DNA of 35,126 nt, from positions 1 through 35,126 of the forward strand of contig CAYSHT010000005.1 in the NCBI GenBank assembly GCA_964430915.1. Reading direction: 5' to 3'. Below are positions 18,474 to 34,116 of the stretch, in pieces. A program made the translations under genes and the position numbers. Under the pieces are notes generated by a model that had not been told where the DNA came from, did not search any database, and saw only the letters and a list, made by a program, of their open reading frames with translations. Position 1 is the first letter of the stretch. Every line of letters begins with the position of its first letter. The DNA is from an uncultured Syntrophaceae bacterium. Lineage in GTDB: Bacteria > Desulfobacterota > Syntrophia > Syntrophales > UBA2210.

Positions 18474-20597
18474 ATGAGGGAAAAGGAGAGTAATACAAAG
18501 CCGGATAGCAAAGTAAAAAACAATGCAGATGATTCTTTTGACTACAAACGAATTATGATTGTGTCAGATGTAGTAGAGGAACTGAGGATTAAACAAAGCG
18601 TTATCGAATCATCAATTAATGGACTGGCAATCGGCGACCTTGATGGAAATCTGACCTATGTTAACAACGCCGCACTTGAACTATTTGGCGGGTATGAATT
18701 ATTGGAGGTCCTGGGACGTTCCGCTGTCATTTTTGCCTGTTCAGAGGATGAGGCCCTTGGTGCCCTCAGTCAGGTGCGCGAGAAGGGAACGTGGGTTGGA
18801 GATATAACAGGCAAAAAGAAGGATGGTTCTGAAATCTTCGTTAGTTTATCGGCGAATATCGTTAACAATGAAGAGGGAGAGCCTATTTTTATAATGTGTT
18901 CCTTTGTAGACATTACGGAGCGAAAGCAGATCGAGGATGAACTTCACATCAAAGAAAACGCCATTGCTTCGTCAATCAATGGCATCGGTATTGCCGATCT
19001 GGAGGGGAGGATCACCTATATCAACGATGCGGCACTGACAATGTGGGGTGCCGAAGATCCTTCTGAGGTTCTGGGAAAATCTCCCCTTGATTTTGCCGAG
19101 GACCAGGAGGAGGCGGAACGTATATTTGTAGAGTTCATCGAGAAGGGTGGCTGGACCGGCGAGGTATCGGGGAAGAGAAAGGACGGTTCACCGATCACGG
19201 TTCTTATCACGGCGAGCCTGGTGAAAAACGAGAAGGGTGAGCCGATCTGCATGATGGATTCCTTTGTTGATATTACGGCACGTAAGAAAATGGAAGAGGA
19301 ACTCCGCATCAAAGACAGTGCGATACGATCATCAATCAACGGTATTGCCATTGGAGATCTGGAGGGGAGGATCACCTATATCAACGATGCGGCACTGACA
19401 ATGTGGGGTGCCGAAGATCCTTCTGAGGTTCTGGGAAAATCTCCCCTTGATTTTGCCGAGGACCAGGAGGAGGCGGAACGTATATTTGTAGAGTTCATCG
19501 AGAAGGGTGGCTGGACCGGCGAGGTATCGGGGAAGAGAAAGGACGGTTCACCGATCACGGTTCTTATCACGGCGAGCCTGGTGAAAAACGAGAAGGGTGA
19601 GCCGATCTGCATGATGGATTCCTTTGTTGATATTACGGCACGTAAGAAAATGGAAGAGGAACTCCGCATCAAAGACAGTGCGATACGATCATCAATCAAC
19701 GGTATTGCCATTGGAGATCTTGAGGGGAATATTACCTATGTAAATGAGGCCTTCATAGAGTTGTGGGGCGGTGAAGATATATCTGAGATACTGGGAAAAT
19801 CGGCTGTAACATTTGCCGAGTCTGAAGAAGAAGGACATGATATTATAACTGTTTTGATGAAAGAAGGAAACTGGATCGGAGAAATAACGGGAATCAGAAA
19901 AGATGGCATACCCATAACGGTTCAACTCTCGGCAAGTATGGTTTCGAATGAAAAGGGCGAACCGATTTGCATGATGTGTTCCTTTGTCGACATTACAAAA
20001 CGGAAGGAAGCGGAGGATAAGCTACAGAGGTCACACGAAGAACTGGAGATCAAGGTTCAGGAGCGAACGCAGGAACTTACAGAGGCTAATATACAATTGA
20101 AGAAAGAGATTGATGAGCGCAAAGAGGCGGAAAAGGCTCTATTGCTGAAGGAGAAAGAGCTCGAACTCAAATCCCTTAATCTCGAGGAGGCAAACACGGC
20201 ATTGAAGGTCTTGCTGAGACAGGGGGAAAAGGATAAGATAGAGCTCGAAAATAAGGTACTTACGAACATAAAAGAGCTTGTCATGCCAGGTATCGAGAAA
20301 CTGAGGAGTTGCAGACTCGACGAAAAGCAGAAGGCCTATGTAAACATACTAGAATCAAATCTCGACGACATAATTTCTCCCTTCCTTCAGAAACTCTCGT
20401 CGAAGTATATGGATTTTACTCCTACCGAGATACAGGTCGCCAACCTCGTGAGAGAAGGAAAACCGACCAAAGAAATATCGGAATTATTGAATATCTCTGA
20501 AAGGGGCATAGAATTTCACAGGAACAACATTAGAATGAAGCTGGGTTTGAAAAACAGAAAGACAAACCTCAGGACCTACCTTTTGTCCCTAACCTGA
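18474..20597 (+). CDS. One-component transcriptional regulator: four PAS domains, a coiled-coil-like linker and a LuxR/FixJ-type HTH
   Basis: Four approximately 120-aa repeats, each starting S(S)INGxxIxDLxGxxTYxNxA and ending FVDIT(E/A/K)RK. A Glu/Lys-rich helical stretch follows. C-terminal TEIQVANLVREGKPTKEISELLNISERGIEFHRNNIRMKLG. Confidence 0.8.
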   Translation: MREKESNTKPDSKVKNNADDSFDYKRIMIVSDVVEELRIKQSVIESSINGLAIGDLDGNLTYVNNAALELFGGYELLEVLGRSAVIFACSEDEALGALSQVREKGTWVGDITGKKKDGSEIFVSLSANIVNNEEGEPIFIMCSFVDITERKQIEDELHIKENAIASSINGIGIADLEGRITYINDAALTMWGAEDPSEVLGKSPLDFAEDQEEAERIFVEFIEKGGWTGEVSGKRKDGSPITVLITASLVKNEKGEPICMMDSFVDITARKKMEEELRIKDSAIRSSINGIAIGDLEGRITYINDAALTMWGAEDPSEVLGKSPLDFAEDQEEAERIFVEFIEKGGWTGEVSGKRKDGSPITVLITASLVKNEKGEPICMMDSFVDITARKKMEEELRIKDSAIRSSINGIAIGDLEGNITYVNEAFIELWGGEDISEILGKSAVTFAESEEEGHDIITVLMKEGNWIGEITGIRKDGIPITVQLSASMVSNEKGEPICMMCSFVDITKRKEAEDKLQRSHEELEIKVQERTQELTEANIQLKKEIDERKEAEKALLLKEKELELKSLNLEEANTALKVLLRQGEKDKIELENKVLTNIKELVMPGIEKLRSCRLDEKQKAYVNILESNLDDIISPFLQKLSSKYMDFTPTEIQVANLVREGKPTKEISELLNISERGIEFHRNNIRMKLGLKNRKTNLRTYLLSLT
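18996..19720 (+). repeat. Perfect 360-bp in-frame tandem duplication (one whole PAS domain) inside the regulator gene
   Basis: 18996-19360 is identical base for base to 19356-19720 when the printed lines are compared. Period 360 nt, equal to 120 codons. Confidence 0.95.
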
Positions 20598-20716
20598 TAG
20601 ACATAGCTGAGACAGCCTCATTTTTACTATAGAAGCTCTGCGGAGCCCCGTATAAGAGGAATCTCCGCTTCAGCTCCGACTAGCTTGCCGGAAACTCCGG
20701 TTGTTTAGTAAGTTAG

Positions 20717-20753
20717 AAATTATTTTCTGTGTTTTCCTGTCAGAGAATAATTT
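20717..20753. promoter_or_regulatory. Imperfect 13-bp inverted repeat (candidate operator) between the regulator gene and acd
   Basis: aaattattttctg (20717-20729), 11-nt spacer, cagagaataattt (20741-20753). One mismatch. AT-rich context about 210 nt upstream of the acd start. Confidence 0.25.
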
Positions 20754-20961
20754 TGTTAACGCACTTATCTCATTTATCGGGATTAATGAAATATTTATTA
20801 TTTTATGCGCTTCCTGTTCAGTTCAAACTTCTTTCCATGGAGGCCGTCAAATTCATGCTTGAATGATTGTTTCTTTTATCGTATCAGTATTTCCCGTCAC
20901 CATTCATCTCTTTTTCGGGGGGATATAATCTGGGACACAAAAAACCAAAAGGAGGAAATTC

Positions 20962-22113
20962 ATGTCGCTACTGGAAAACTATTACACTCAGGAACACTCA
21001 ATATTCAGGGAATCGATTCGGCGGTTTTTCGACAAAGAGGTAACGCCCTATGTTGAAGAATGGGAGAAAGCAGGAATCGTTCCACGCGAGATCTGGAAAA
21101 AATTCGGAGCGCAGGGTTTTCTATGTCCCTGGCTGCCTGAGGAATACGGTGGAGTGGAAGCGGACTTTATTTATTCTCTCATCGGCATTGAGGAAGCTGC
21201 AAGCACCCATTGTGCGGGATTCGTTTTTCCCCTTCACTCGGATATCATTGTTCCCTATATTTACGCTTACGGAAACGACGAACAGAAGAAACGCTGGCTT
21301 CCCGGCTGTGCGACAGGTGAATACATAACGGCCGTCGCCATGACGGAGCCTGGAACCGGGTCGGACCTGGCGGCCATTCGTGCAACCGCGGTCAAAGACG
21401 GTAATAATTATATAATCAACGGTCAGAAGACCTTTATATCGAACGGTATCAACGGCAACCTCGTGATCGTTGCCGCTCAGACCGAGTCTGAGGCAGACTC
21501 TCCCTATGCGAGGATGTCACTCTTTGTGGTCGAAGGAGATACACCCGGATTCGAAAGGGGACGGAATCTTGAAAAGATCGGGCTCCACTCTCAGGATACT
21601 GCGGAAATGTCCTTCGTTGATTGCGTTGTTCCGGCAGAGAATCTCCTTGGTCAGGAAGGAAAAGGGTTTTACTATCTTATGGAAGAACTCCAGCAGGAAA
21701 GACTTGTCTCAGCAATGATGAGTCAGATCTTTGCTGAGGAGGCCCTGCGTCTGACCATAGAATATACCAAGAGCCGCGAGGCCTTCGGCCGTCCCATTAG
21801 CCGTTTCCAGTATATCTCATTCGAACTCGCCAAGATGGCTACGGATGTTGAACTGGGACGAACATTTATGGAAAGCCTCATTATAGATCACATGGCGGGT
21901 AAGGAACTCGTAAAAAAGGCATCCATGGCGAAATACTGGATTGCTGAAATGTTAAACCAGGTGGTAGGAAAGTGCGTTCAGTTTCATGGAGGTTACGGAT
22001 ACATGGAGGAATATCCTATCGCACGTCTCTTCAGGGATGCGAGGGTACAGACAATATATGCGGGAACTTCCGAGATCATGCTCCTGATTATCAGCCGATA
22101 TCTCGGACTTTAG
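20962..22113 (+). CDS. Acyl-CoA dehydrogenase, LCAD/IVD-type catalytic-base arrangement
   Basis: 383 aa with AMTEPGTGSDLA, KTFISNG, GKGFYYLMEELQQERL and RDARVQTIYAGTSEIM. Strong RBS AAGGAGGA at 20949-20956. Confidence 0.9.
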   Translation: MSLLENYYTQEHSIFRESIRRFFDKEVTPYVEEWEKAGIVPREIWKKFGAQGFLCPWLPEEYGGVEADFIYSLIGIEEAASTHCAGFVFPLHSDIIVPYIYAYGNDEQKKRWLPGCATGEYITAVAMTEPGTGSDLAAIRATAVKDGNNYIINGQKTFISNGINGNLVIVAAQTESEADSPYARMSLFVVEGDTPGFERGRNLEKIGLHSQDTAEMSFVDCVVPAENLLGQEGKGFYYLMEELQQERLVSAMMSQIFAEEALRLTIEYTKSREAFGRPISRFQYISFELAKMATDVELGRTFMESLIIDHMAGKELVKKASMAKYWIAEMLNQVVGKCVQFHGGYGYMEEYPIARLFRDARVQTIYAGTSEIMLLIISRYLGL

Positions 22114-22271
22114 AAAAAGCTCTATTTACAGGGGAATACTGGGTCAGGTGATAAACATATTTAAGTGTTTTCATATTATTATTGTCCTGTCCCTTTCCAT
22201 CCTTTAACATATCTTCAGTGTGAGGCGGAACCTTCATGAAAAAAAACAGTATACCACTGAAGACATGCCAG

Positions 22272-22365
22272 CTTGAATTGAACAGCGAGCGCGTTCCCCG
22301 CTGCTTGCGGCGGGGTTAGCGAGCAAATAAAAAATAAAAATTTTCCTTAACAATCGGAGATTCAA
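22272..22365 (+). repeat. Structured intergenic repeat, copy 4 (hairpin 2 precisely absent)
   Basis: Near-identical to copy 1 through ..ttccttaacaatcggagattcaat. The segment between the two gagattc direct repeats is missing. Confidence 0.8.
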
Positions 22366-22417
22366 TTATGAAATTTGTTCTGATACACTCTTTCGCCGAC
22401 ACTGAATGATAGAATAA

Positions 22418-22446
22418 TTGACCTCCTTTCAAAAGGGGAGTATCTT
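22418..22446 (+). promoter_or_regulatory. Candidate sigma70-type promoter upstream of lutA (TTGACC-N17-TATCTT)
   Basis: ttgacc at 22418-22423, 17-nt spacer containing the near-palindrome ctcctttcaaaaggggag, and tatctt at 22441-22446. Pattern only. Confidence 0.3.
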
Positions 22447-22572
22447 CTTTTTCACGATCAAAAGGTGAAAGCTGAGCCATAGCCTTTTTGATGCCAGAAA
22501 ATTATTTGTTGCAACCGGTAGTGCCGTTTTTCATTTCTTCAGAGAATAGTAGAATAAGCAAGGAGGGTCCTT

Positions 22573-23313
22573 ATGAAAAAGGTGTCGCTGTTTATCCCCT
22601 GTACCGTTGATATTATCCTTCCCGAGATAGGAGAAGAGACCACGTATTTGCTCGAACGTCTCGGGGTTTCGCCCATTTACCATGAGAAACAGACATGCTG
22701 CGGCCAGCCTGCAATTAACGCAGGTTATGTTGACGAGGCAAAAAAGTCGGCGAAACACTTTATCGAGGTCTTTGGAGACGATGAGGTCGTGGTCAGTCCT
22801 TCAGGGTCCTGCCTTCATACGGCGAAATACAGGTATCCGGAGCTTCTCTCGGACGAGCCGGTGTGGCTGCGGCGGGCAGAGGAGCTGTCATCCCGGCTCT
22901 TTGAGCTGTCCCAGTATATTGTCGATGTGCTGGGAGTTGAGGACGTGGGTGCCTCATTTGAGGGCACGGTCACCTACCACGAATCCTGCCAAATTCTGAG
23001 AGGCCTGGGGGTTTCCGAACAACCAAAGAAACTCATAACTGCCGTAAATGGAGCGGAATTTGTTCCTCTCAACAGTGCTGACAAATGCTGTGGTTTCGGG
23101 GGAGAATTCGCGAATAACTACCCCGATATTTCGGAGGAGATGGTGAAAGACAAGGTGCAAAACTATATAGCGAGCGGTGCAGATCTGCTCGTCCTCTGCG
23201 AGCCGGGGTGTCTTCTCAATATTAATGGGTACCTGAGCCGCAATCATCCAGAAAAAAAGGCCCTTCATATCGCAACGCTTCTTGCAGATACGGGAAGGGA
23301 GGTGCGGCTATGA
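22573..23313 (+). CDS. lutA: Lactate utilisation protein A (cysteine-rich CCG-domain Fe-S oxidoreductase, LutA/YkgE-like)
   Basis: Two CCG motifs (QTCCGQP, DKCCGFGG). 246 aa. RBS AAGGAGGG. ATGA overlap with the next gene. lutA-lutB-lutC order. Confidence 0.8.
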   Translation: MKKVSLFIPCTVDIILPEIGEETTYLLERLGVSPIYHEKQTCCGQPAINAGYVDEAKKSAKHFIEVFGDDEVVVSPSGSCLHTAKYRYPELLSDEPVWLRRAEELSSRLFELSQYIVDVLGVEDVGASFEGTVTYHESCQILRGLGVSEQPKKLITAVNGAEFVPLNSADKCCGFGGEFANNYPDISEEMVKDKVQNYIASGADLLVLCEPGCLLNINGYLSRNHPEKKALHIATLLADTGREVRL

Positions 23314-24746
23314 AGATAAAAACGGAACAGTTTGTCGAGGTAGCACGAAGGGAAATGGCGGATCTGAATTCACGAGCATTTCTGCAACTACTCCCCCCTG
23401 TCATAGCGGCGATGCGAAAAGCCGCAATGGCAACCTTTCCCGATCCGGATGCGGCCACTGAATATTCGAGGGCCATCAGGGCTGAGGTGGTTGCGCGATT
23501 GCCGGAACTTCTTGAAGAATTCGAGGCAAATGCAATTGCACGCGGTGTCAAGGTGATCTGGGCGCGGGATGCGGAGGAGGCAAACGATTTTATTCTCAAT
23601 CTTGCCCTGAAGCGAGGGATCAAATATGTCACGAAGGGTAAATCCATGGTCAGTGAGGAACTGGGAACCAACGATGTACTCATCAAAAACGGCATAGAGG
23701 CATTTGAAACGGACCTCGGTGAGTTTATCGCCCAGCAGCTCAATCGCCCTCCCTTTCATATCGTAGGTCCGGCCGTCAATGTTTCAGTCCAGGAGATATG
23801 CGATCTCTTTATGGAAAAGGCGGGCATGGAGGAAGCCACCACGGATCCTGTTGAACTTGGGTATGCGGCGCGTGTTTATCTGAGAGATAAGTTTCATCAT
23901 CTCGAGATGGGTATTACGGGCGTCAATATGGCCGTGGCCGAGACGGGTTCAATTATAAATGTTGAAAATGAGGGAAATATACGCCTGACCAAATCATCTC
24001 CCAGGGTCCAGGTATCCGTCATGAGCCTTGAAAAGGTCGTTCCCACCATGCGAGATGCAATACATGTACTCAGGCTCTTGTGCAGAAACTGCACCGGGCA
24101 GTCAATTTCCTCATATGTGTCTATAGATACGGGTCCGAAAAAAGACGATGAGATTGACGGACCGGAAGAACTCTATATCGTCATTGTTGATAACGGGCGC
24201 TCCGATCTTTACGGGGACGTAAAGGCCCGTGAGGCCCTCAGATGCATACGCTGCGGAGCATGTCTAAATCACTGCCCTGTTTACGCGACGATCGGCGGTT
24301 ATCCTTACGGCTGGGCCTATTCCGGTCCGATGGGTCAGGTGTTAAATCCCCTCCTTCTCGGTCTGGACAGAACGCAAGACCTTTATCGAGCCTGTACGTT
24401 ATGCGGAGCGTGCAAAGAGGTGTGTCCCTCAGGCATAGACCATCCAAGCATGTTCCTCTACTACCGCTCAAAGGACGTGAAGGGTGATAGTAAATTGAAA
24501 GGGAAAAAACGCGACTGGAAGGAAGTTGGCATTTTCAAGATATTCACCCTTGCATCCACACTACCATGGCTTTGGAATCTGGGTGCAAGGCTGATACGTC
24601 CCTTCTATAATCGAAATGCCAAAAATGGTGTGGTCTCTCATATATCGGGGCTCTTTGAAGGCTGGTTCAGAAAAAGGGACCTCCCGGCCATGCCTGCAAA
24701 GACATTCCACGAGCGCTGGAAGGATATAGAAAAGAGGTTATCTTAA
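23310..24746 (+). CDS. lutB: Lactate utilisation protein B (4Fe-4S / LUD-domain protein, LutB/YkgF-like)
   Basis: 478 aa. Two ferredoxin-type motifs, CIRCGACLNHCP and CTLCGACKEVCP, following a LUD-like N-terminal domain. Confidence 0.8.
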   Translation: MKIKTEQFVEVARREMADLNSRAFLQLLPPVIAAMRKAAMATFPDPDAATEYSRAIRAEVVARLPELLEEFEANAIARGVKVIWARDAEEANDFILNLALKRGIKYVTKGKSMVSEELGTNDVLIKNGIEAFETDLGEFIAQQLNRPPFHIVGPAVNVSVQEICDLFMEKAGMEEATTDPVELGYAARVYLRDKFHHLEMGITGVNMAVAETGSIINVENEGNIRLTKSSPRVQVSVMSLEKVVPTMRDAIHVLRLLCRNCTGQSISSYVSIDTGPKKDDEIDGPEELYIVIVDNGRSDLYGDVKAREALRCIRCGACLNHCPVYATIGGYPYGWAYSGPMGQVLNPLLLGLDRTQDLYRACTLCGACKEVCPSGIDHPSMFLYYRSKDVKGDSKLKGKKRDWKEVGIFKIFTLASTLPWLWNLGARLIRPFYNRNAKNGVVSHISGLFEGWFRKRDLPAMPAKTFHERWKDIEKRLS

Positions 24747-24773
24747 TAACGAATCGGGGGAGAGGAGAATAAA

Positions 24774-25445
24774 ATGGTACGGAACGCAAGAGACGAAATC
24801 CTCGGTAAACTCAGGGCTGTTCACAGGGCTGATGTCCCTCAGCGACCCGAGGTGCCGTCATTGAATGAAACGGCCTTCGACAGAGAGGAAATGATAGCCA
24901 AATTTACAGAGGCACTCTTCCTGCAGACAGGTGTTGTACACAGGGTCAAGGACAATCAGGAAGCCCTGGATAAGCTTGCGGAGATCGCAAAAGAGGAAAA
25001 ACTGGAAAAGGTTATGGCCTCGACGGATGACGTAATTGCACCGCTGGATTTACCTTCATGGGGGAAGGAAAACGGAATTCAGATTCTTACGGCCGGGGAT
25101 TTCAAGGACAGAAATTCCTTTAAAGATGCGGTCTTTGATGAGGTAAATGCGGGCATTACGGGAGCGAATTTTGCCGTGGCGGAATCGGGCACGCTTGGAC
25201 TCATCCATGACAGGGATCAGGCAAGGCTGATCTCTCTTGCACCCATACTCCATATTGCCATTGTGCCGACGGAGAGATTTGTTCCCATATATGAAAGTGC
25301 AATCGAGAAGGTTTTTGAAGATATAAATGCTGTTCCCGGCCAGTTCACTTTTATTACGGGGCCGAGCATGACGGCCGATATTCAGGCTACCATCTTCAGA
25401 GGGATGCACGGACCGAGGAAGCTGATCGTCATCCTGACAGGTTGA
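24774..25445 (+). CDS. lutC: Lactate utilisation protein C (LUD-domain, LutC/YkgG-like)
   Basis: 223 aa, third gene of the lutABC arrangement. RBS GAGGAG. Call rests on size, position and general LUD-domain resemblance. Confidence 0.7.
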   Translation: MVRNARDEILGKLRAVHRADVPQRPEVPSLNETAFDREEMIAKFTEALFLQTGVVHRVKDNQEALDKLAEIAKEEKLEKVMASTDDVIAPLDLPSWGKENGIQILTAGDFKDRNSFKDAVFDEVNAGITGANFAVAESGTLGLIHDRDQARLISLAPILHIAIVPTERFVPIYESAIEKVFEDINAVPGQFTFITGPSMTADIQATIFRGMHGPRKLIVILTG

Positions 25446-25489
25446 TTTTTTCAGATATGGAATCATATCGAATAAGTGGAGGGCATTGA

Positions 25490-25765
25490 ATGAAGCCGAA
25501 TGTGGTTATTATAAATCTTCGGGATAATGTTGCCGTGATACTTGAGGATGTAAAAGAGGGAGACATCATTAATCTTCCCAACGGTAAAATGTTTACCGCC
25601 CGTTCCGATATTCCTTACAGTCATAAGGTTGCATTGAAAGACATAGAAGCTGGAGGGTACATTTATAAGTACGGTGAGGTAATCGGAGCGGTAAAGGAAA
25701 ACATAAGAAAAGGCGACTGGATTCATACCCACAATCTGGATATCGAGGCGAAGGTTGAGGAATGA
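25490..25765 (+). CDS. UxaA-family small subunit (SAF-domain; SuyA / altronate-dehydratase N-terminal-like)
   Basis: 91 aa. Pattern VAVILEDVKEGD...SHKVALKDIEAGGYIYKYGEVIG is typical of the SAF domain that forms the N-terminus of UxaA/GarD. ATGA overlap with the large subunit. Confidence 0.7.
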   Translation: MKPNVVIINLRDNVAVILEDVKEGDIINLPNGKMFTARSDIPYSHKVALKDIEAGGYIYKYGEVIGAVKENIRKGDWIHTHNLDIEAKVEE

Positions 25766-26928
25766 GAAAAATGGAGACATTCGACGGATATGAGAGACCT
25801 GACGGGTCAGTGGGGATAAGGAATTATGTAGCGGTTATTCCCACCGTGGCATGTGCCAACGGGATTGTTGGTATGATTGCGAGGGCCGTCCCCGGTGTTG
25901 TCCCCATTTATCATGGTCACGGTTGCGGCAGAGCCGTTGAGATAGAGATGCATACAAGGACATTGGCGGGGCTGGGAAAGAATCCCAATGTTGCCGCTGT
26001 CCTTGTGATCGGTCTTGGATGCGAAACAATAAACGCCGAAGGGCTTGCACTGGCTATTTCAGTGACAGGAAAACCGGTGGAATTTCTGTCCATTCAGGAT
26101 AAAGGAGGCTCAAGAAAAACGGCGGCGCTGGGTATGGAAATAGTCAGAAAAATGATTGATGATGCAAAAAGGATCGAGAGAAAACCCTTTGGATTTGACC
26201 GGTTTTGTGTGGGTCTTGAATGCGGCGGCTCCGATGCCTTTTCGGGCGTTACTGCCAATCCCGGGGTTGGTCTCGCGGCCGACTGGATTGTTGACGCCGG
26301 CGGTACGGTAATCCTCACGGAAACGACAGAGATGATAGGGACATCGCACATACTTGAGAAAAGGGCCGAATCTCCTGAAATTGCGGCCGAGATTCATCGT
26401 GTCATTGCGGAGGCGGAAAAGCGTGCCGACGATATCCTCGGCCCTCTCGCGTCTCTTGTCATTTCACCGGGTAATATGGATGGTGGCATGAGTTCCATTC
26501 GCGAAAAGTCGCTGGGCTGCATCATTAAAGGAGGGAGCAGACTGATTAACGAAGTAATAGACTACGGAACTACCCCTGCAAAAAAGGGGCTCGTTATCAT
26601 GGACGGACCGGGCTATGACATGGAATCCCTGGCGGGTCTCGGAGCGACGGGAGCACAGCTCATACTATTTACCACCGGGAGGGGCAATCCTGCCGGTTTC
26701 CCGCTGATACCCGTAATCAAGGTGGCAAGTACGAGAAGACTCTATCGCGCTATGGAAGATGATATGGATATCAATGCGGGGGTTGTCCTCGAAGGTGAAA
26801 GCCTGGAGGATGTTTCTCAGGAGATAATCAGTCTTGCGAAAGAGGTCGCAAACGGGAGGCAAACGAAGGCGGAGATTAATGATCAGGATGGTATCGTTTG
26901 CCTCTATACGATGAATCCGGCCTTTTAA
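25762..26928 (+). CDS. UxaA-family large subunit (SuyB / altronate- or galactarate-dehydratase C-terminal-like)
   Basis: 388 aa. GIRNYVAVIPTVACAN, HGHGCG, VIGLGCE and GLECGGSDAFSG patterns match the GD_AH_C domain as I remember it. Confidence 0.72.
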   Translation: MRKMETFDGYERPDGSVGIRNYVAVIPTVACANGIVGMIARAVPGVVPIYHGHGCGRAVEIEMHTRTLAGLGKNPNVAAVLVIGLGCETINAEGLALAISVTGKPVEFLSIQDKGGSRKTAALGMEIVRKMIDDAKRIERKPFGFDRFCVGLECGGSDAFSGVTANPGVGLAADWIVDAGGTVILTETTEMIGTSHILEKRAESPEIAAEIHRVIAEAEKRADDILGPLASLVISPGNMDGGMSSIREKSLGCIIKGGSRLINEVIDYGTTPAKKGLVIMDGPGYDMESLAGLGATGAQLILFTTGRGNPAGFPLIPVIKVASTRRLYRAMEDDMDINAGVVLEGESLEDVSQEIISLAKEVANGRQTKAEINDQDGIVCLYTMNPAF

Positions 26929-26947
26929 GAGAAAAAGGGGGTATAAG

Positions 26948-28192
26948 ATGAAAAGGGTGTCTGTGCCATCGCGGCTCTGGTATGAAAACATAGAAAGGGA
27001 ATTGAACTTCCCCGACAGGTGGGAGGTGGATAATCTTACCTCCCCCGGTTTTGAAAAGCCGGCGCTTGCCTCCGAGGAGATAAAAGAAAAGATTAGAAAT
27101 CCCATTGAGGGTCCGACGCTTGAGGAACTCGCGAAGGGTAAGAGTCAGGCCGTCATTGTATTTGACGACATGACAAGACCGACGCCTGTTAAGGATATTG
27201 CCCCACATGTGCTCGAGTCTCTCCACAAAGCCGGGATGAAGAAAGATCAGATACGGTTTATCTGGGCGCTGGGGAGTCACGGTCCCTATGACATGATAAA
27301 TGCCAGGAAGAAATTGGGCGACGAGATAGTCGAAAATTACGCCGTCTACAACCATGATGCCTTTCAGAATACGGTGTGGGCGGGAAGAACGCCGACAGGA
27401 GTGGAACTCTGGTTCAACCGGGAATTTATGAACTGCGACCTGAAAATAGGTATCGGGTGCATCACGGCCCATGTTCATGTGGGCTTTGGAGGTGGCGCAA
27501 AGCTGATTCTTCCCGGTGTGGCAGGGATCGAGACGGTAAACCAGTTTCATAATCAGATGTTCAGAGATCCCGTACGAACAGGACTGGGAAAGTTTGATGA
27601 TAATATTATGCGAGCCGAGTGCGATGCCGCCGGTGATATGGTCGGTCTTGATTTCAAGGTGGATTGTCTTTTGAACCGCCGTGGTGAGATAACCGGTCTC
27701 TATGCGGGATCATTCAGGGCCACTCATGCCGCCGGGGCCGAGGAAGGTAAGGATCACTATGGGATTCCCCATGCTTCAGGCTATGATGTAGCGGTATGCA
27801 ATTCCTACGGAAAGGCGAATGAATCGGCGATTGCACTCTTGCTTTCCCTCACTGTTTTAAAACCTGGCGCAGAGGGAACGGCCGTACTTATTTCCGATGC
27901 TCCCGAGGGGCAGGTGCCTCATTATGTCATGCGGGCCTGGGGGACCGGCTATGGCGGCCGCCACTATAGTCCGCGGGATCCGGGATTTGTCTCCCTGCTC
28001 ATGAAGAAACTGATTGTCTTAAATCCCCAGCCCGACCGGACAATGCTTGACCTTGTCTGTCACATTGATGATGCCACGGTTGTGAAGACCTGGAATGAGG
28101 TGCTGAACGTACTGGAAAAGGATTATACCGGGGCGGCAAAGGTTGCCGTGATTCAGGACGGGACCATGCAGTATATAAAAACGCCGGAATGA
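26948..28192 (+). CDS. larA: LarA-family nickel-pincer-nucleotide-dependent 2-hydroxyacid racemase/epimerase homologue
   Basis: 414 aa. FDDMTRPTP (compare LarA DxTRP), ALGSHGP (His108-like), AHVHVGFGGGAKLILPG (His174/Lys184-like) and NQFHN (His200-like). Confidence 0.72.
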   Translation: MKRVSVPSRLWYENIERELNFPDRWEVDNLTSPGFEKPALASEEIKEKIRNPIEGPTLEELAKGKSQAVIVFDDMTRPTPVKDIAPHVLESLHKAGMKKDQIRFIWALGSHGPYDMINARKKLGDEIVENYAVYNHDAFQNTVWAGRTPTGVELWFNREFMNCDLKIGIGCITAHVHVGFGGGAKLILPGVAGIETVNQFHNQMFRDPVRTGLGKFDDNIMRAECDAAGDMVGLDFKVDCLLNRRGEITGLYAGSFRATHAAGAEEGKDHYGIPHASGYDVAVCNSYGKANESAIALLLSLTVLKPGAEGTAVLISDAPEGQVPHYVMRAWGTGYGGRHYSPRDPGFVSLLMKKLIVLNPQPDRTMLDLVCHIDDATVVKTWNEVLNVLEKDYTGAAKVAVIQDGTMQYIKTPE

Positions 28193-28373
28193 GAAGGTGC
28201 CGAAAATCGAAACAACATAAACTCCAGCGGGAATCCGGCATTTTCAGGACTGTCAAATCTGTAGCCCGCCGATTTATCGGCATAATAGCCTGATGAATCA
28301 GGCAACTACATTTTACAAATCTATCATATTTTGCCACAATGTCATTCCCAACATGATCGGGAATCCGGTGTAT

Positions 28374-28994
28374 TTACTGCTTTAGTAGTTCTCTCCCCAG
28401 GTCAAAGGCCTTCAGGTTTATGTCGATCTTATTCTGAGGTATGCTCTTAGCGATTACCTCCCTGAAGTCCTCCTTATCGAGAGGCAGGTCGTCAAGACCA
28501 GAGAGGGCGCCGAGCATAATGATATTTCCCAGGATTGGATTCCCGAGCTTCAGCGCTTCGTCTGTTGCATCGATAAACCAGGCCTCAGATGAAATTCCCC
28601 GGGCGGTCTTTTTTGTTTCCTCGAGGGCGGGGTAGGCGAGATCTCCCGCAAGGACGCCTGCGGGATGGATCGGCCTTGTATTGCTCACGACCTTTACATC
28701 GGGATTACCGTAATCCGCCAGTACCCTTATTGCCTCGGTAGGTTCAAGGGCGACAATCATATGCGCCTTGCCCTTGGGGATTTGCGGACTCCATGTATCT
28801 TTCTTTGATATCCTGAGATGGCTCATAACCGAGCCTCCGCGTTGTGAGGCACCGAAGGTTTCACCGATTGTGACATAATATCCTTTTTTAACAAGCATAT
28901 TTGCCAGTACCCGCGATGCCATGACATTTCCCTGACCGCCGACACCGGTGATGATAATATTATAAGGATCGTTTGGTAATTGTGTGCCTGCCAT
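28374..28994 (-). CDS. iorB: Indolepyruvate/arylpyruvate:ferredoxin oxidoreductase, beta subunit
   Basis: 206 aa with ITGVGGQGNVMASR (gamma-domain of 2-oxoacid:ferredoxin oxidoreductases). Starts 3 nt after the iorA stop, with AAGGAGG RBS. Confidence 0.8.
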   Translation of the reverse strand: MAGTQLPNDPYNIIITGVGGQGNVMASRVLANMLVKKGYYVTIGETFGASQRGGSVMSHLRISKKDTWSPQIPKGKAHMIVALEPTEAIRVLADYGNPDVKVVSNTRPIHPAGVLAGDLAYPALEETKKTARGISSEAWFIDATDEALKLGNPILGNIIMLGALSGLDDLPLDKEDFREVIAKSIPQNKIDINLKAFDLGRELLKQ

Positions 28995-28997
28995 GGT

Positions 28998-30935
28998 TTA
29001 CACTGCCTCCTTTCTGGTAATGGCTCCTGCAGGGCATATATCTGCGCAGACCCCGCATCCGGTGCATATCACTTCGTCCAGCCTTGTTACCTGCTTTTCC
29101 TTGTCCCAGACAAGACCGGGACAGCGGAATATGCGTGTGCATACCCTGTTGCATCCGCAATTTTCTCCGAGACAGATTTCCTCGTTGATGGCCATTTCAT
29201 ATTTCTTTCCTGCCTTTTTTTCCGGGCTGAGGCCGCAGATCTGTCTCAGAATAAGGACCTTGAGACCTTCCTTGTCCTCCATGAGTTCGTTCAATGTTTC
29301 CCGCGTTTCTTCCAGTTCAAAGGGGTCTCGTATCTCAACCCGTGCCCCCATTGCCCGGCATAGCTCTGCAATGTCGAGATCGGGAACGTTGTCTCCCATG
29401 GCGTTTACTTTCAGACCGGGATGAGGTTGGAATCCCGTCATGGCAGTACCGCTGTTATCGAGTACGACAAGCGTAAAATCCGATTTATGATGTCTGGCGT
29501 TAATGAGCGCCGGTATTGCCGAGTGAAAAAAGGTGGAGTCTCCGCAGACGGCCAGGACCGGCTGATCAAGCCCGAACTGGCCAAGTTTCCCAAATCCGCT
29601 GGCGAGGCCGCTTCCTGAGCCCATGGCGTGGACGGTTTTCAGGGTAGTAAAACCGGTGGGGAGGAGTGCCATCGTATAACAGCCGATGTCACCGCAGACA
29701 AAACCCTTTCGTCCATCCAACTCGAGGGCGTTATGAATGCTCCAGAATGACGCCCTGTGAGGACATCCGGGACAGAAGATAAGCTCCCTTTGGGGTGCGC
29801 CGAAAAATGCCAGGCCCTGTGTCTTGGCTGAATACTCCTCGGGCCTCGGCAGATAGTCAATCTCCAGTATTTTTGCAATTGCGTTAATCACGTGATCGGG
29901 ATTCAACTCGCCAACCATGGGAATGGTATCGTCATTCTTGCCGTAAAATTTCTTGATGCCGATTTCAGACGCGGTTTCAGCGGCGATTACTTTCACATTC
30001 TCTTCGAGAAAGGGCAGTACCTCCTCGACAATCAATATCTTTTCCGTGAGCGAGAGATACCGCGTGAGGAGCTTGGGTGGAAGCGGCCATGTTGTCCCCA
30101 TTTTGAGAAGGCCGACTCTGTCTTTCAGCCCGAGAATACTGATAGCTTCCCTGCTGTAGAGAGTGCATGCGCTGCTCGTGATTATGAGGAGTTCCGGTTT
30201 ATCAGGGCCTTCGTATGTATTGAAGGGGGAATCCTCGAAGATTTCCTTTGCCCTTTTGAGCTTTTCATGCTGCTGGGAGTGCTTATAGTCGACGGGCGCG
30301 CTGATGACCACACCCTCGTCAGGATCAAGGATAAATCCGTCACATCTGAACCGTGCCGTCGATTCTTCGGTGGGGAGTGTGCCGAATTTAACGTTACCAC
30401 TCGCGTGAGAAAGACGGGTAACACTCCTTAGCATTACCAGCTGTTTCAGTTCCTCCGAGAGTTCGAAGGCCCACTTGGTCATGTCCTTTGCTTCCTGAAA
30501 ATCGCCGGGTTCCAGAAGAGGAATCTCGACCGTTCTTGCAAAGAAACGGGATTCTCCCTCGTTTATGCTCGAAAGTGCTCCCGGGTCGTCACAGGGGACC
30601 AGTACCATCCCCCCCCGTGTGCCTGAACCTGCCAGGTGAAGCAGAAAGTCAGAGGCCACATTGACACCGTTTTGCTTCATTACGCAAAGTGATCTGAGCT
30701 CCGCGAAGGATGCAGCCGCAGCTACCTCCATGGCCACCTTTTCATTGACTGACCATTCCACATACATATTGGTCTCCTTTGCGACGCCGGCGAGACTCTC
30801 TATTATTTCTGAAGAAGGGGTGCCCGGATATCCGGCGGCCACTTTTGCGCCTGCCTCCAATGCCCCGCGCGCAATCGCCTCATTTCCCATAAGCAGGTGC
30901 TCTGCACCTTCCTTTTTGTCTAATAGTGCGGACAT
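28998..30935 (-). CDS. iorA: Indolepyruvate/arylpyruvate:ferredoxin oxidoreductase, alpha subunit
   Basis: 645 aa. N-terminal pyrimidine-binding domain, TPP motif GDSTFFHS...LDN, and C-terminal Cys clusters CNRVCTRIFRCP and CTGCGVCADICP. Confidence 0.85.
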   Translation of the reverse strand: MSALLDKKEGAEHLLMGNEAIARGALEAGAKVAAGYPGTPSSEIIESLAGVAKETNMYVEWSVNEKVAMEVAAAASFAELRSLCVMKQNGVNVASDFLLHLAGSGTRGGMVLVPCDDPGALSSINEGESRFFARTVEIPLLEPGDFQEAKDMTKWAFELSEELKQLVMLRSVTRLSHASGNVKFGTLPTEESTARFRCDGFILDPDEGVVISAPVDYKHSQQHEKLKRAKEIFEDSPFNTYEGPDKPELLIITSSACTLYSREAISILGLKDRVGLLKMGTTWPLPPKLLTRYLSLTEKILIVEEVLPFLEENVKVIAAETASEIGIKKFYGKNDDTIPMVGELNPDHVINAIAKILEIDYLPRPEEYSAKTQGLAFFGAPQRELIFCPGCPHRASFWSIHNALELDGRKGFVCGDIGCYTMALLPTGFTTLKTVHAMGSGSGLASGFGKLGQFGLDQPVLAVCGDSTFFHSAIPALINARHHKSDFTLVVLDNSGTAMTGFQPHPGLKVNAMGDNVPDLDIAELCRAMGARVEIRDPFELEETRETLNELMEDKEGLKVLILRQICGLSPEKKAGKKYEMAINEEICLGENCGCNRVCTRIFRCPGLVWDKEKQVTRLDEVICTGCGVCADICPAGAITRKEAV

Positions 30936-30950: not shown

Positions 30951-32063
30951 TTATCCTGTAATTTCGTCTACCGTCTTTGATTGCAGTCTCAAATAGGATT
31001 TCTTATCCCCTTCCGTGTTTATCATACCTTCCTCTTTTGCCTTCACAAAGGCCCGTTTCTTCTTGTTTCCCGCGGCCCACATGAGGTGTTCGAGATTTTC
31101 TTCCGGAATATCGTGGAGGATTAGATATCCCTCTTTAACAGATTCGTTCACGATCTTTTGGCCCCGTTCGGTCCTGATGATCAGAGTATTCAAATCGGGG
31201 CGGCCCTCAAGCACGCCGACAGAAATATCGGAGAATTCCGAGGTCATATCGATGCAGTAACTGCATGTTTCGGGAACCAGCTCACGTATTTCATTGAGGG
31301 GTATCTCGATCTTTTCCTCCCCCATATACACCTCCATTATCTCGGAGGGGGGAGGCGGAATATCGACCTTCGTAATTGTAGTAATATCGACCCGTTCGGA
31401 AATGAAGGGTGCGAAGGCTCTGAAATCAATGGCCCATGTACAGAAGAGTCCCACCACGAGGGCGACTGAATCAGTGAAGTCCTCTTTTTCGAGAGGGTTC
31501 ATTCTCATCTGTGCCACCGACAATACCTGACAGGGTGTTGCCACAACGCCAATCTTTTTATACTCGTCGGTCATCGCCTGATTAAGTGCCGAGAGCGTCG
31601 GTGAAGCCGAATACTTTGAGGAAGAACACTGTAAGACTTCATCAGCATCGGTAATAACTCGTGGAACGGGGAGTATCCCTTCCTTGTCGGTGAGCACCGC
31701 CGCATCTATATGGCCTTTAGCCAGGGCAAAACTCATAAGGGCCGATACTGTTCCTCCTGCCTGAAACGACGCCTTTTCCACCTTCGGGCCTGCCTTTGCT
31801 GTATGTATTGAGAGATAATTTCCAAGGGGTCCTCCTTCGTAGTATCTCCCGAAATATTGCTGGGACAGTTCGTCAAGATTCACCTCGATCTTCGGACAGT
31901 AAGCGAAACACCTCCCTTCTTCAAGGGTACAGGGAAACAACATGGCCGTTTTCCCCTTATAGGACCTGAAATAGGGGCAAAGGTGAATGCATGCTCCGCA
32001 TCCGATACAGAGATTTTTGTTGATAACTTCTTCCAAGAGTTCATTGGGTCCGAAAATTTTCAT
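30951..32063 (-). CDS. FrhB/FdhB-family flavo-iron-sulfur protein (coenzyme F420 hydrogenase/dehydrogenase beta-subunit-like) with an N-terminal ferredoxin domain
   Basis: CIGCGACIHLCP plus C..C...CFAYCP, then QAGGTVSALMSFAL, GVVATPCQV and VGLFCTW, which are typical of FrhB_FdhB N and C domains. AGGAGG RBS. Ends 15 nt before iorA. Confidence 0.7.
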   Translation of the reverse strand: MKIFGPNELLEEVINKNLCIGCGACIHLCPYFRSYKGKTAMLFPCTLEEGRCFAYCPKIEVNLDELSQQYFGRYYEGGPLGNYLSIHTAKAGPKVEKASFQAGGTVSALMSFALAKGHIDAAVLTDKEGILPVPRVITDADEVLQCSSSKYSASPTLSALNQAMTDEYKKIGVVATPCQVLSVAQMRMNPLEKEDFTDSVALVVGLFCTWAIDFRAFAPFISERVDITTITKVDIPPPPSEIMEVYMGEEKIEIPLNEIRELVPETCSYCIDMTSEFSDISVGVLEGRPDLNTLIIRTERGQKIVNESVKEGYLILHDIPEENLEHLMWAAGNKKKRAFVKAKEEGMINTEGDKKSYLRLQSKTVDEITG

Positions 32064-32273: not shown

Positions 32274-33311
32274 TTAAAAGTTGTGTATCGCAGTTGATTT
32301 AAAGGAAAGGCATATCTCTGACCCTTCGTTGATTTCCATCTCGAAGAGTGAGCTTTTCGTAATAAGCGATTTGAAGAGGACCTTCTCGACGATAATATCA
32401 ACCTCATAATAGAGCCCATGATCCACTATGGCGGTAACCCTTCCACTGAAGGAATTTCTCATGCTTGAGGTCAGTTTTTCCCTGCTGAGGACGATGTCTT
32501 CCGGTCGTATCGCAAGGTATCCGTGGCCGTTTTCGGGTGTTCTGCCGAGCTCGATTGCAAGACCGTTTACATTTGCCTTTGTTCCCTGAAAATGGGCCAT
32601 AAAAAGATTTTTCATGCCGACAAAATCGGCAACAAAAGTCGAATCAGGGTGCTGAAATATATCCTTCATGTATCCGACCTGTTCGATTTTTCCTCCGTTC
32701 ATAATAGCGGCCCTGTCTGCGAGGGAAAGGGCTTCGGCAAAATCGTGGGTTACCATGAGGAAGGTAACATCCGTACTCTTGTGAAGTCTTTTTAACCCGA
32801 TTCTTATGTCTTCCCTGAATCCCGGGTCCAAGGCGGAGAGGGGTTCGTCAAGGAGCAGCACCTTCGGGTTAACCATGAGTGCTCGTGCCAGGGCTATACG
32901 CTGATTTTCGCCGCCGCTCAGGTTAGTAGGAAGCCGTTTCAACAGATGCGAAATATTCAGCTCTTCCACGAGTCGATCCCGTCGTTTTTTTGACTCATTC
33001 TTTGGTAACTTGTGAAAATGAAGACCATAGGTGATATTTTCGAGTACCGTCAGATGGGGAAAGAGGGCATAATCCTGATAGACAATACTGATCCCTCGTT
33101 TCTCCGGCGGTAATTTCGTGACGTTTCTTCCAGCTATTGTCATACGTCCGCTATGAACCCCAATGAGTCCGGCCATTGCTTCAAGGAGAACAGTTTTACC
33201 CGCGCCCGTTGGCCCCATCAGTATGAAAAACTCGTTCTTTTCAATTCTGAGGTTGATATCGCGGAGTTTAAACTCGCCCAGATTAATATTGACGTCTTCA
33301 ATATGGATCAT
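32274..33311 (-). CDS. wtpC: Tungstate/molybdate ABC transporter ATP-binding protein with a C-terminal TOBE/Mop-like domain
   Basis: Walker A GPTGAGKT, signature LSGGENQRIALARAL, Walker B LLLDEPLSALD. The C-terminal approximately 60 aa form a beta-rich TOBE-like tail. ATGA overlap with the permease gene. Confidence 0.7.
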   Translation of the reverse strand: MIHIEDVNINLGEFKLRDINLRIEKNEFFILMGPTGAGKTVLLEAMAGLIGVHSGRMTIAGRNVTKLPPEKRGISIVYQDYALFPHLTVLENITYGLHFHKLPKNESKKRRDRLVEELNISHLLKRLPTNLSGGENQRIALARALMVNPKVLLLDEPLSALDPGFREDIRIGLKRLHKSTDVTFLMVTHDFAEALSLADRAAIMNGGKIEQVGYMKDIFQHPDSTFVADFVGMKNLFMAHFQGTKANVNGLAIELGRTPENGHGYLAIRPEDIVLSREKLTSSMRNSFSGRVTAIVDHGLYYEVDIIVEKVLFKSLITKSSLFEMEINEGSEICLSFKSTAIHNF

Positions 33312-34102
33312 TCGTCTTTTTTATTCCTTAAAGTGAGAATTCTTAAAATCAGGAACAGGGTAAGGCAGACGGAAACCAGCCAGACTGCAACGGGCTGTGA
33401 ATACTTCAGGCCGTAACTCTCAAAACGTTCGTAAAGCAAAACCGGTGCGATCATCGGGTGATAGGCGACGACAACAACCGCTCCAAATTCACTTATGGCG
33501 CGTGCACTGCACATAATGATACCGATCAGCATGCTACGCCATGCAAGGGGGAAGGTAATTCTGGAAAAGGTGCTGAACATGGATGCACCCAGGCTGCGCG
33601 ATACATTTTCGAGCCTGGGGGAAATGTTTTCAAACCCATTCTTAACGGCATTCACATAAAAGGGAAGACCAACGAAAGTCAGCACAACAACGATTCCCGT
33701 TACGCTCCCCATTATCCTGATTCCGAGCTCGCCGAAAAATTGTCCGAGCCAGTGATTTTTTCCCGCAACGCTAAGGATCGCAATACCCACAACGGGGTGG
33801 GGAATGACAATGGGCAAATCGATGATACTTTCTATGAGGTGTTTCCCCCTGAAATTGCTACGTGCCAGTATATAGGCGAGGGGAGTTCCGAAGACGAATG
33901 CGATAAGGGCGGCCAGTCCAGCCGTATAGATACTCAGCCAGATCGACCGCACAACATCTTTGTCCTGTATGGTTTCTTTGAGCATCGAAAAAGAAGGAGC
34001 CGTCAGCATCTGTATCAGGGGAAGCAGTATGAATGCCAGGATGATAAGCCCGCATGAAACGGTGATCCAGAAAAAGGGTTCTTTCTTTGTCATGTTTTCC
34101 AA
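33308..34102 (-). CDS. wtpB: Tungstate/molybdate ABC transporter permease
   Basis: 264 aa with about 6 TM. EAA-like loop SRSLGASMFSTFSRITFPLAWRSML. Lies between the binding-protein and ATPase genes. Confidence 0.7.
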   Translation of the reverse strand: MENMTKKEPFFWITVSCGLIILAFILLPLIQMLTAPSFSMLKETIQDKDVVRSIWLSIYTAGLAALIAFVFGTPLAYILARSNFRGKHLIESIIDLPIVIPHPVVGIAILSVAGKNHWLGQFFGELGIRIMGSVTGIVVVLTFVGLPFYVNAVKNGFENISPRLENVSRSLGASMFSTFSRITFPLAWRSMLIGIIMCSARAISEFGAVVVVAYHPMIAPVLLYERFESYGLKYSQPVAVWLVSVCLTLFLILRILTLRNKKDE

Positions 34103-34116
34103 TCTTTATAAATCTA

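Follow-up and report, generated by a model that had tools for sequence, protein, structure and literature searches.

A predicted lutABC, split dehydratase and larAH operon for hydroxy acid catabolism in an uncultured Desulfobacterota anaerobe

Gene content of the locus

Here we describe a gene cluster from an uncultured Syntrophaceae bacterium, in which a two-subunit member of the UxaA/GarD dehydratase superfamily lies beside a homologue of the racemase LarA (larAH) and a set of lutABC genes, and which would serve the catabolism of hydroxy-carboxylic acids. The window, by which we mean the whole stretch of 35,126 nucleotides analysed (GenBank assembly GCA_964430915.1, contig CAYSHT010000005.1, positions 1 to 35,126), is one contig (C5) of a 2.17-Mb metagenome-assembled genome (MAG) that is 90% complete, and whose closest relatives are MAGs of the Desulfobacterota which carry the labels "Deltaproteobacteria", Thermodesulfobacteriota or Syntrophales. 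Three open reading frames (ORFs) had been singled out in an original prediction made from the sequence alone: a 91-aa SAF-domain gene (uxaS), a 388-aa UxaA C-domain gene (uxaL) overlapping it by ATGA, and a LarA homologue 19 nt further on. Both the ORFs and their domains were confirmed, with the overlap read at 25762-25765, the spacer at 26929-26947, a larAH product of 414 aa, and GGAGG-like ribosome-binding sites 5' of the small-subunit gene and of larAH (Table 1).

The frame is probably wider than these three genes. Directly upstream of the SAF gene lie lutA, lutB and lutC, and because they share its strand and are tightly spaced (gaps of at most 44 nt, or overlap), with a 460-nt gap 5' of lutA, we consider lutABC-uxaS-uxaL-larAH to be probably one six-gene unit. 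The LutABC subunit set (CCG; LUD/Fe-S; LUD) is complete in this one operon, and matches the LutABC/LldEFG L-lactate oxidation complex in its three subunits and their domains, whereas the lutB product falls slightly under the TIGR00273 cut-off (393 vs 444.8 bits).

Table 1. Genes of the predicted operon and its surroundings, in window coordinates
Feature	Position	Strand	Basis or remark
PAS x4 / LuxR-HTH one-component regulator	18474..20597	+	Pfam PAS, GerE
Acyl-CoA dehydrogenase, AcrC-like below cut-off	20962..22113	+	Pfam Acyl-CoA_dh N, M, C domains
lutA-like CCG-domain Fe-S subunit	22573..23313	+	PF02754 CCG x2; matches C-terminal part of LdhH NF045670
lutB-like LUD-domain / 2x[4Fe-4S] subunit	23310..24746	+	PF02589, Fer4_8, LutB_C
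lutC-like LUD-domain subunit	24774..25445	+	PF02589
uxaS, small SAF / beta-clip subunit, predicted split UxaA/GarD-family dehydratase	25490..25765	+	PF08666; TIGR03248 positions 4-80
uxaL, large catalytic subunit, predicted split UxaA/GarD-family dehydratase (anaerobe clade)	25762..26928	+	PF04295 + PF20629
larAH, LarA homologue, predicted NPN-dependent 2-hydroxyacid racemase/epimerase, group-23-like	26948..28192	+	Lar_N PF09861
iorB + iorA, indolepyruvate-type 2-oxoacid:ferredoxin oxidoreductase	28374..30935	-	Convergent with operon
FrhB/FdhB-like flavo-Fe-S protein, directly upstream of iorA	30951..32063	-	PF04432, PF04422, Fer4

A split dehydratase in a clade of its own

Pfam assigns the small protein to SAF (PF08666) and the large protein to GD_AH_second and GD_AH_C (PF04295, PF20629), and since the two cover positions 4-80 and then 106-500 of the TIGR03248 galactarate dehydratase profile, they correspond to one fused-type enzyme cut at the domain boundary. 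Together with the Lar_N domain of the third gene, these matches bear out the earlier claim that a split UxaA-family enzyme is paired with a LarA homologue. The large subunit matches the GarD structure 6u7l (E 5e-59), and its Cys31, Cys55, Cys87 and Cys154 align with all four cysteine columns of the family, which are also filled in Escherichia coli UxaA and GarD. The pair therefore shows the whole set of features of the UxaA/GarD superfamily (COG2721), i.e. SAF, GD_AH_second and GD_AH_C domains plus four cysteines. These cysteines are described as conserved across the superfamily "except for sulfolactate sulfo-lyase" by a study that also infers a heteromeric form of L-fuconate dehydratase (Watanabe 2019, PMC6336799). 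We predict that uxaS and uxaL encode a two-subunit, Cys-ligated, iron-type dehydratase which, following the chemistry of the family, would take the C2 proton and the C3 hydroxyl from a 2,3-dihydroxy acid and leave a 2-oxo-3-deoxy acid.

In order to place the large subunit, 80 related loci (51-84% identity to it) were taken from species genomes, and trees were built with FastTree (122 rows) and with IQ-TREE under LG+G4 (51 rows), with GarD as outgroup. The window protein and all 80 fetched loci form their own clade with 100% support, found in Desulfobacterota, Actinomycetota (Geothermincolia and relatives), Spirochaetota and a few Bacillota, nearly all of them MAGs. Of these 80 loci, 77 carry a SAF gene directly upstream of the large-subunit gene, and in the remaining three the contig extends less than 200 nt upstream of the large-subunit match, from which we conclude that the split is ancestral to this clade. 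The phylogeny that the original prediction had proposed, with SuyB, UxaA and GarD included, set the window protein outside the SuyB clade and apart from both other enzymes. An identity as GarD was rejected on score (240 bits vs a TIGR03248 cut-off of 730.85) and on the 100% support that separates the GarD outgroup. An identity as UxaA was likewise rejected, the window clade branching apart from E. coli UxaA in both trees, in neither of which does it join the fused idonate/arabinonate-like group. As judged from its sequence, the enzyme would best be described as an uncharacterised iron-type hydroxy-acid dehydratase of a separate, always-split clade of anaerobes.

With E. coli GarD (6u7l), UxaA and the D-arabinonate/D-idonate dehydratases it has in common the three-domain architecture, the four-Cys motif and the predicted reaction, by which a 2,3-dihydroxy acid becomes a 2-oxo-3-deoxy acid. 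They are single-chain, fused enzymes encoded in sugar-acid operons, whereas the window enzyme is split, branches apart, and belongs to non-saccharolytic anaerobes in which it lies beside LutABC, indolepyruvate-type oxidoreductase (IOR) and aldehyde:ferredoxin oxidoreductase (AOR) genes.

A classical sugar-acid route, in which the dehydratase would act on a hexonate, pentonate or aldarate (altronate, galactarate, arabinonate, fuconate) and LarAH would be a 2-epimerase like GntE (gluconate/mannonate), has to be weighed against this background. In its favor, sugar acids are the substrates of all characterised family members other than SuyB (PMC6336799), KDG permease, DHDPS-family, FAH-family and KGSADH genes accompany the closest annotated plasmid homologues (43-47% identity), and IclR and MFS genes lie beside some members of the clade. 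Against such a route stand the position of the clade in the tree, the TIGR03248 score of 240 bits vs 731, and the genome and neighbourhood content: no domain match to UxaC or to KDPG-aldolase (Eda, PF01081) was obtained in the host genome, and no KDG kinase, aldolase or DHDPS-like gene occurs among the annotated recurrent neighbour clusters of the related loci. The clustering with altronate or galactarate dehydratases, next to hexuronate genes, that the original prediction had named as its refutation was not seen. The sugar-acid dehydratase plus 2-epimerase that it had offered as an alternative comes closer to the truth than its favored proposal, but the classical hexuronate/aldarate version of it is unsupported and, in our view, unlikely.

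The neighbors of the dehydratase clade are heterogeneous across the related loci (clustering was done on crude ORF calls, and two antisense artefacts, clusters 6 and 22, were ignored). Recurrent among them are LutABC, LarA homologues, FrhB-IorAB, AORs and aldehyde dehydrogenases, as well as an AMP-forming CoA ligase, Liv-type ABC transporters, MFS transporters and a PanE-like 2-oxoacid reductase, with IclR and PAS-LuxR as recurring regulators. Such neighbors point to the metabolism of small acids, 2-oxoacids and acyl-CoA rather than to the breakdown of sugar acids. Two Spirochaetota (Leptospirales) MAG loci, L022 and L080, carry SAF-uxaL followed by IclR, a PanE/ApbA-like 2-oxoacid reductase, a DUF362 Fe-S protein and an AMP-forming CoA ligase, which is a different downstream route for the presumed 2-oxoacid product.

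Sulfolactate lyase as an alternative

The emphasis of the original prediction was on a SuyAB-type (2R)-3-sulfolactate sulfo-lyase, with LarAH as a redox-neutral sulfolactate racemase replacing the SlcC/ComC pair. The proposal has some appeal, as beta-elimination from a 3-substituted lactate suits the chemistry of the family, and the window pair belongs to the same superfamily and is split in the same way as SuyAB (SAF of about 90 aa, catalytic subunit of about 390 aa). The similarity in sizes that had been pointed out is real, but this two-subunit architecture is common to many members other than SuyB; because split forms also occur on Metabacillus, Priestia, Salmonella, Sporomusa and haloarchaeal plasmids, subunit sizes are not diagnostic of SuyAB.

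As a reference for true SuyB we used Sinorhizobium mexicanum plasmid pEmeITTGR7c, checked by its gene context: a 95-aa SAF gene, a 393-aa large subunit, a YeiH/SuyZ-like exporter, a D-2-hydroxyacid dehydrogenase and a homologue of the ComC-like L-sulfolactate dehydrogenase, in agreement with the naming of S. mexicanum as a species with SlcC, ComC, SuyA and SuyB homologues (PMC12421959). A search of 400 Desulfobacterota genomes found 17 with a SuyB that is 66-73% identical to this reference, SuyB thus being a tight orthologue group across phyla. The window large subunit, at 32% identity, stands near the bottom of the match list. S. mexicanum SuyB has a cysteine at the fourth family column only, the other three being lost, whereas the window enzyme keeps all four. 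The SuyB sequences form a long-stemmed clade with 100% support in both trees, with the window protein outside it, and a union of the two is rejected by the approximately unbiased (AU) test (lnL difference 100.5, p 0.004). As to the sulfite reductase, exporter and sulfolactate genes that it had been suggested to look for, neither a NIR_SIR sulfite reductase domain (PF01077) nor an Ldh_2/ComC gene (PF02615) was matched in the 90%-complete host genome, and the window holds no sulfite or sulfate exporter. Identity, cysteine signature, phylogeny and genome context together rule out that the pair is SuyAB, and the sulfolactate proposal as a whole is largely refuted, with very little probability left to it. 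What stands of it is the sound general idea that a C2 racemase supplies a stereospecific enzyme of alpha,beta-elimination, while sulfolactate as the substrate is unsupported. The case also serves as a warning that a "SuyAB-like" annotation drawn from subunit sizes alone is unsafe.

Family cysteines are also missing on Haloterrigena turkmenica plasmid pHTUR02, which carries three consecutive UxaA-family genes in the order large-small-large; one of the two large paralogues lacks three of the four cysteines, as in SuyB, and the other lacks one.

An orphan lineage of LarA homologues

The LarA homologue has the residues expected of an enzyme that depends on nickel-pincer nucleotide (NPN). Within an alignment of 25 sequences of relatives, D73, D74, R77, H111, H175, K185 and H201 are invariant, and HMMER alignments to LarA structures equate D74, R77, H111, H175, K185 and H201 with LarA D72, R75, H108, H174, K184 and H200. 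LarAH thus keeps the two catalytic histidines, the NPN-tethering lysine, the nickel-ligand histidine and the Asp and Arg of the D-x-x-R motif; a loss of the Lys/His cofactor residues, which the original prediction had named as a possible refutation, was checked on the alignment and the His/His/Lys/His set is intact. An AlphaFold2 model (pLDDT 86.2, pTM 0.87) superposes on LarA structures in both domains, with Foldseek TM scores of 0.76-0.82 against 9eid, 6c1w and 5huq, and the two-domain LarA fold is kept. It is the sole Lar_N gene of the host genome, in which larC, larE and larB lie together on another contig (C125), all above their cut-offs.

LarAH nevertheless falls far below every NCBIfam LarAH equivalog cut-off, and the models match residues 1-290 only. 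The score against the NF033504 lactate racemase model is 197.8 bits vs a cut-off of 460, in the N-terminal domain only, and the positions of LarA Tyr294, Gln295 and Lys298 hold Ile, Ala and Leu, on which grounds an identity as lactate racemase LarA sensu stricto (group 1) was rejected. Membership in LarAH group 5, the group of Mar1, was rejected on the NF052595 score (188 bits vs a cut-off of 462).

The window lineage conserves N285, K289, E292, Q322, H325, Y326 and a YGGR motif, and when the dataset of Desguin et al. 2020 was searched as text, these lineage motifs turned up in Deba_0774 of Desulfarculus baarsii, which is filed there in LarAH group 23, as of "unknown function" and with no associated COG (PMC7583248). 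Both proteins keep the D, R, H, H, K, H set, have the Y294/Q295/V297/K298 positions replaced by small or hydrophobic residues, and have the KANE, PEGQ(V/I)xHY and YGGR motifs in common. They differ in that the Deba_0774-like clade is about 42% identical to the window LarAH, which belongs to an orthologue group of its own (71-80% identity), and in that group 23 is without gene context in the 2020 dataset, whereas the window lineage has a clear, conserved one. As the link to Deba_0774 comes from motifs matched by text search, and as group 23 is itself heterogeneous, we call the window LarAH a probable, but not proven, group-23-like orphan.

Pairing of LarA homologues with UxaA-family enzymes

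The original prediction took the pairing of a LarA homologue with a lyase or dehydratase of this family to be undescribed. It is in fact on record: among the genes that surround LarAHs of group 5, the COG2721 altronate dehydratase is listed (19 genes beside 15 LarAHs), together with TctA and TctC (Desguin 2020, Sci Rep, PMC7583248, Table S1), group 5 being that of Mar1 of Desulfitobacterium hafniense. The main texts of the LarA papers hold no discussion of a dehydratase, Table S1 of PMC7583248 being the only place where we found the pairing, and the dehydratase partner of group 5 is without characterisation in the literature surveyed. In both cases an NPN-dependent LarA homologue adjoins a UxaA/GarD-family dehydratase, and the same logic of stereo-inversion plus elimination can be proposed; the window differs in that its LarAH is not a group 5 member, in that TctABC is absent, and in that its partners are LutABC and FrhB-IorAB.

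This precedent invites a route through C4-dicarboxylates, in which LarAH would epimerise tartrate or malate stereoisomers and the dehydratase would convert one tartrate isomer to oxaloacetate, as might be proposed for group 5 (Mar1) with COG2721. Beyond the group 5 context with its COG2721 and TctA/TctC genes, it draws on the facts that malate racemases also epimerise tartrate, that tartrate is the C4 analogue of galactarate, and that the best NCBIfam match of the window LarAH is a malate-racemase model. That match, however, reaches only 188-207 bits vs 462-500 for both malate-racemase models and is confined to the N-terminal domain; no Tct, TRAP or dicarboxylate transporter, malic enzyme or oxaloacetate decarboxylase occurs in the window or among the annotated recurrent neighbors; and LutABC and IOR would be left without an obvious role. 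We regard the C4 route as quite improbable.

Group-22 LarAHs (NF052515) supply further cases, which also lend some weight to the sugar-acid route described above, as they adjoin UxaA-family genes in sugar-acid contexts. On Sporomusa termitida pSPTER a group-22 LarAH adjoins a split UxaA with a TctCBA transporter; whether this plasmid enzyme was LarAH62 (a malate racemase) or LarAH66 was considered and rejected, since the published primers do not match. On Pseudosulfitobacter plasmids, a group-22 LarAH lies with a fused altronate-dehydratase-family gene and larC. The dehydratase gene matches on 47 Pseudosulfitobacter plasmid records, and the context was read on one of them, P. pseudonitzschiae plasmid P8 (NZ_CP087024.1, 46622-50680), where GntR, the fused dehydratase gene, the group-22 LarAH and larC stand in a pentonate-like setting (L-arabinonate dehydratase, DHDPS-family, KGSADH). 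At least three LarAH lineages have been recruited beside UxaA/GarD-type enzymes, and the window set is a variant of this recorded pairing, in which LutABC and IOR join an orphan LarAH lineage and a dehydratase clade that is uncharacterised.

Conservation of the gene set

To see how far the set is kept, 20 kb were fetched around each LarAH orthologue in the 400-genome sample of the phylum. The orthologue group of the window LarAH is present in 24 genomes at 71-80% identity and is sharply bounded (next best 45%). In 10 of these 24 loci larAH lies directly beside SAF-uxaL, and seven of the 10 clusters also hold a complete lutABC, two of the other three being on short contigs. The module was also seen in L013, L016, L078, L082, L085 and L088. 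The order of the genes varies while the set is kept: lutABC-S-L-larAH in the window (S and L being the small- and large-subunit genes), S-L-lutABC-larAH-frhB-iorAB in L013 and L016, and frhB-iorAB-lutABC-larAH-S-L in L085. In L013, L016 and L085, FrhB-IorAB is part of the gene string itself, in the same orientation, and in two more loci (L023, L067) it adjoins SAF-uxaL; FrhB travels with iorAB in these five and in L009, L077 and L175. The set of lutABC, dehydratase and larAH thus recurs in many Desulfobacterota, often with FrhB-IorAB. At the level of whole genomes, a group-23-like LarAH is, by our tally, present in 28 of the 34 genomes with the dehydratase clade (17 of the window type and 11 of the 42% type), compared with about 30 of the 366 without it, which we take as a strong hint rather than a statistic.

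Eight of the remaining 14 LarAH orthologues (73-78% identity; L163, L166, L170, L172, L176-L178 and L180), apparently all from one family (f37), are followed by an ECF-type transporter, consisting of a QueT-like S component, a fused double ATPase and CbiQ/EcfT, which recalls the nickel transporter of the lar operon and may be a dedicated nickel importer. On the other side of LarAH most of these loci carry DsrE-like, NarI-like and HdrD-like (CCG) genes.

Proposed role and substrates

Taken together, we propose that lutABC-uxaS-uxaL-larAH is an operon for hydroxy-carboxylic acid catabolism in an uncultured Desulfobacterota anaerobe. The dehydratase would convert a 2,3-dihydroxy acid to a 2-oxoacid, LutABC would yield that 2-oxoacid or a related one by oxidising the matching 2-hydroxy acid, and LarAH, whose nickel-pincer cofactor would be supplied through larB, larC and larE on another contig, would invert C2, by which both enantiomers or epimers would reach the stereospecific dehydratase and LutABC. 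A C2 epimerase would let one stereospecific dehydratase use both epimers, because the product has lost the C2 stereocentre, and LutABC would gain from a racemase because it is also stereospecific. The convergent FrhB-IorAB would then probably turn the 2-oxoacid into an acyl-CoA. We give this general scheme of LutABC, dehydratase and LarAH a probability of roughly 0.6; most likely, the set serves to bring a small 2-hydroxy or 2,3-dihydroxy acid, in both its mirror forms, to a 2-oxoacid, with carbon presumably flowing in that direction.

As to the substrates, the simplest set that uses every part is the C3 pair of glycerate and lactate, both leading to pyruvate, which we put forward tentatively; LarA-type enzymes are known to racemise lactate and glycerate (PMC11770544). 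A bolder version, which we hold to be doubtful, is that the always-split clade of anaerobes is a dedicated short-chain 2,3-dihydroxy-acid dehydratase, most attractively of glycerate to pyruvate, with LarAH as its glycerate/lactate racemase. To our knowledge, no dedicated natural enzyme family for the dehydration of glycerate to pyruvate has been established.

Several points weigh against the proposed scheme. Both functions, that of the dehydratase clade and that of the LarAH clade, are predicted. IOR-family enzymes classically prefer arylpyruvates over pyruvate, and the host, with about nine AOR paralogues, has the flavour of an aromatic or amino-acid fermenter, so that other R groups are possible. 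A lactate permease LctP (PF02652) was not matched in the host genome. Co-transcription of the six genes is presumed from their spacing alone, and promoter and terminator scans of 20500-28500 gave nothing above shuffled expectation. The co-occurrence figures overstate the link, because related genomes are not independent. Finally, no LarAH is within reach in 67 of the 80 dehydratase loci, and 14 of the 24 LarAH orthologues are away from any dehydratase, eight of these adjoining the ECF-type transporter; for this reason LarAH is an optional accessory of the dehydratase, in a facultative partnership, and not an obligate subunit.

The same figures bear on whether there is a shared pathway at all. 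It could be that lutABC and larAH form a self-contained D/L-lactate unit, with the dehydratase a mere frequent neighbor that acts on an unrelated acid; LutABC is a known lactate oxidase, and LarA with lactate dehydrogenases is a known combination (group 1, PMC7583248 Table S1). This would be at odds with the sampled loci, since none of the 24 holds a complete lutABC with larAH but without the dehydratase, and it would not account for the permuted order in which the set is kept or for the genome-level co-occurrence (28 of 34). The window LarAH, without Tyr294/Gln295/Lys298 and below the cut-off of the lactate-racemase model, is also an ill fit for a lactate unit, and we consider such independence improbable.

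LarA homologues form a large family of nickel-pincer enzymes, most of it unassigned, and the window and its relatives give a group-23-like lineage a conserved context (LutABC, the split dehydratase, often FrhB-IorAB) from which a short, testable list of substrates follows. A glycerate/lactate racemase, if true, would be the first function for LarAH group 23, and a natural glycerate-to-pyruvate dehydratase, if true, would be of interest to designers of minimal cell-free glycolysis. As the dehydratase clade is widespread in syntrophs, sulfate reducers and subsurface Actinomycetota, its substrate bears on the use of small hydroxy acids in these organisms.

Neighboring genes and host genome

The first 14 kb of the window are filled by a dcw cell-division cluster. 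Between this cluster and the operon, the PAS-LuxR gene is a candidate regulator of the island, and its homologues recur 1-3 kb from SAF-uxaL in four related loci (L030, L035, L043, L064). The acyl-CoA dehydrogenase gene scores 334 bits on the NCBIfam acryloyl-CoA reductase model (cut-off 640) and is not kept beside the module in related loci; whether it belongs to the module is uncertain. The 460-nt leader of lutA (22114-22572) holds one copy of an intergenic repeat family, at 22272-22365. On the opposite strand, iorB and iorA are also below their cut-offs (173 vs 205.8 bits for TIGR03334, and 593 vs 650.9 for TIGR03336).

No ILVD_EDD (dihydroxy-acid dehydratase) domain was matched in the host genome, and a replacement of IlvD by the split enzyme was considered and rejected: among 401 genomes of the phylum, 386 encode IlvD, and these include the sister genome (G149) and practically every genome that carries this dehydratase clade. 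The gap is most likely due to the incompleteness of the MAG or to an assembly gap.

The AOR paralogues of the host, recognised by their AFOR_N domain and unusually many, are spread over nine contigs (C7, C18, C34, C43, C67, C79, C88, C100 and C129), and AOR genes recurrently adjoin SAF-uxaL in other genomes (L010, L036, L043, L053, L064, L068 and L088). Beside frhB-iorAB, at 32274-35103 on the minus strand, the window carries a ModA/TupA-like binding protein, a permease and a TOBE-domain ATPase, which are probably a tungstate or molybdate ABC transporter. This trio is kept in L009, and homologues of the permease and ATPase lie just upstream of SAF-uxaL in three further loci (L017, L018 and L025).

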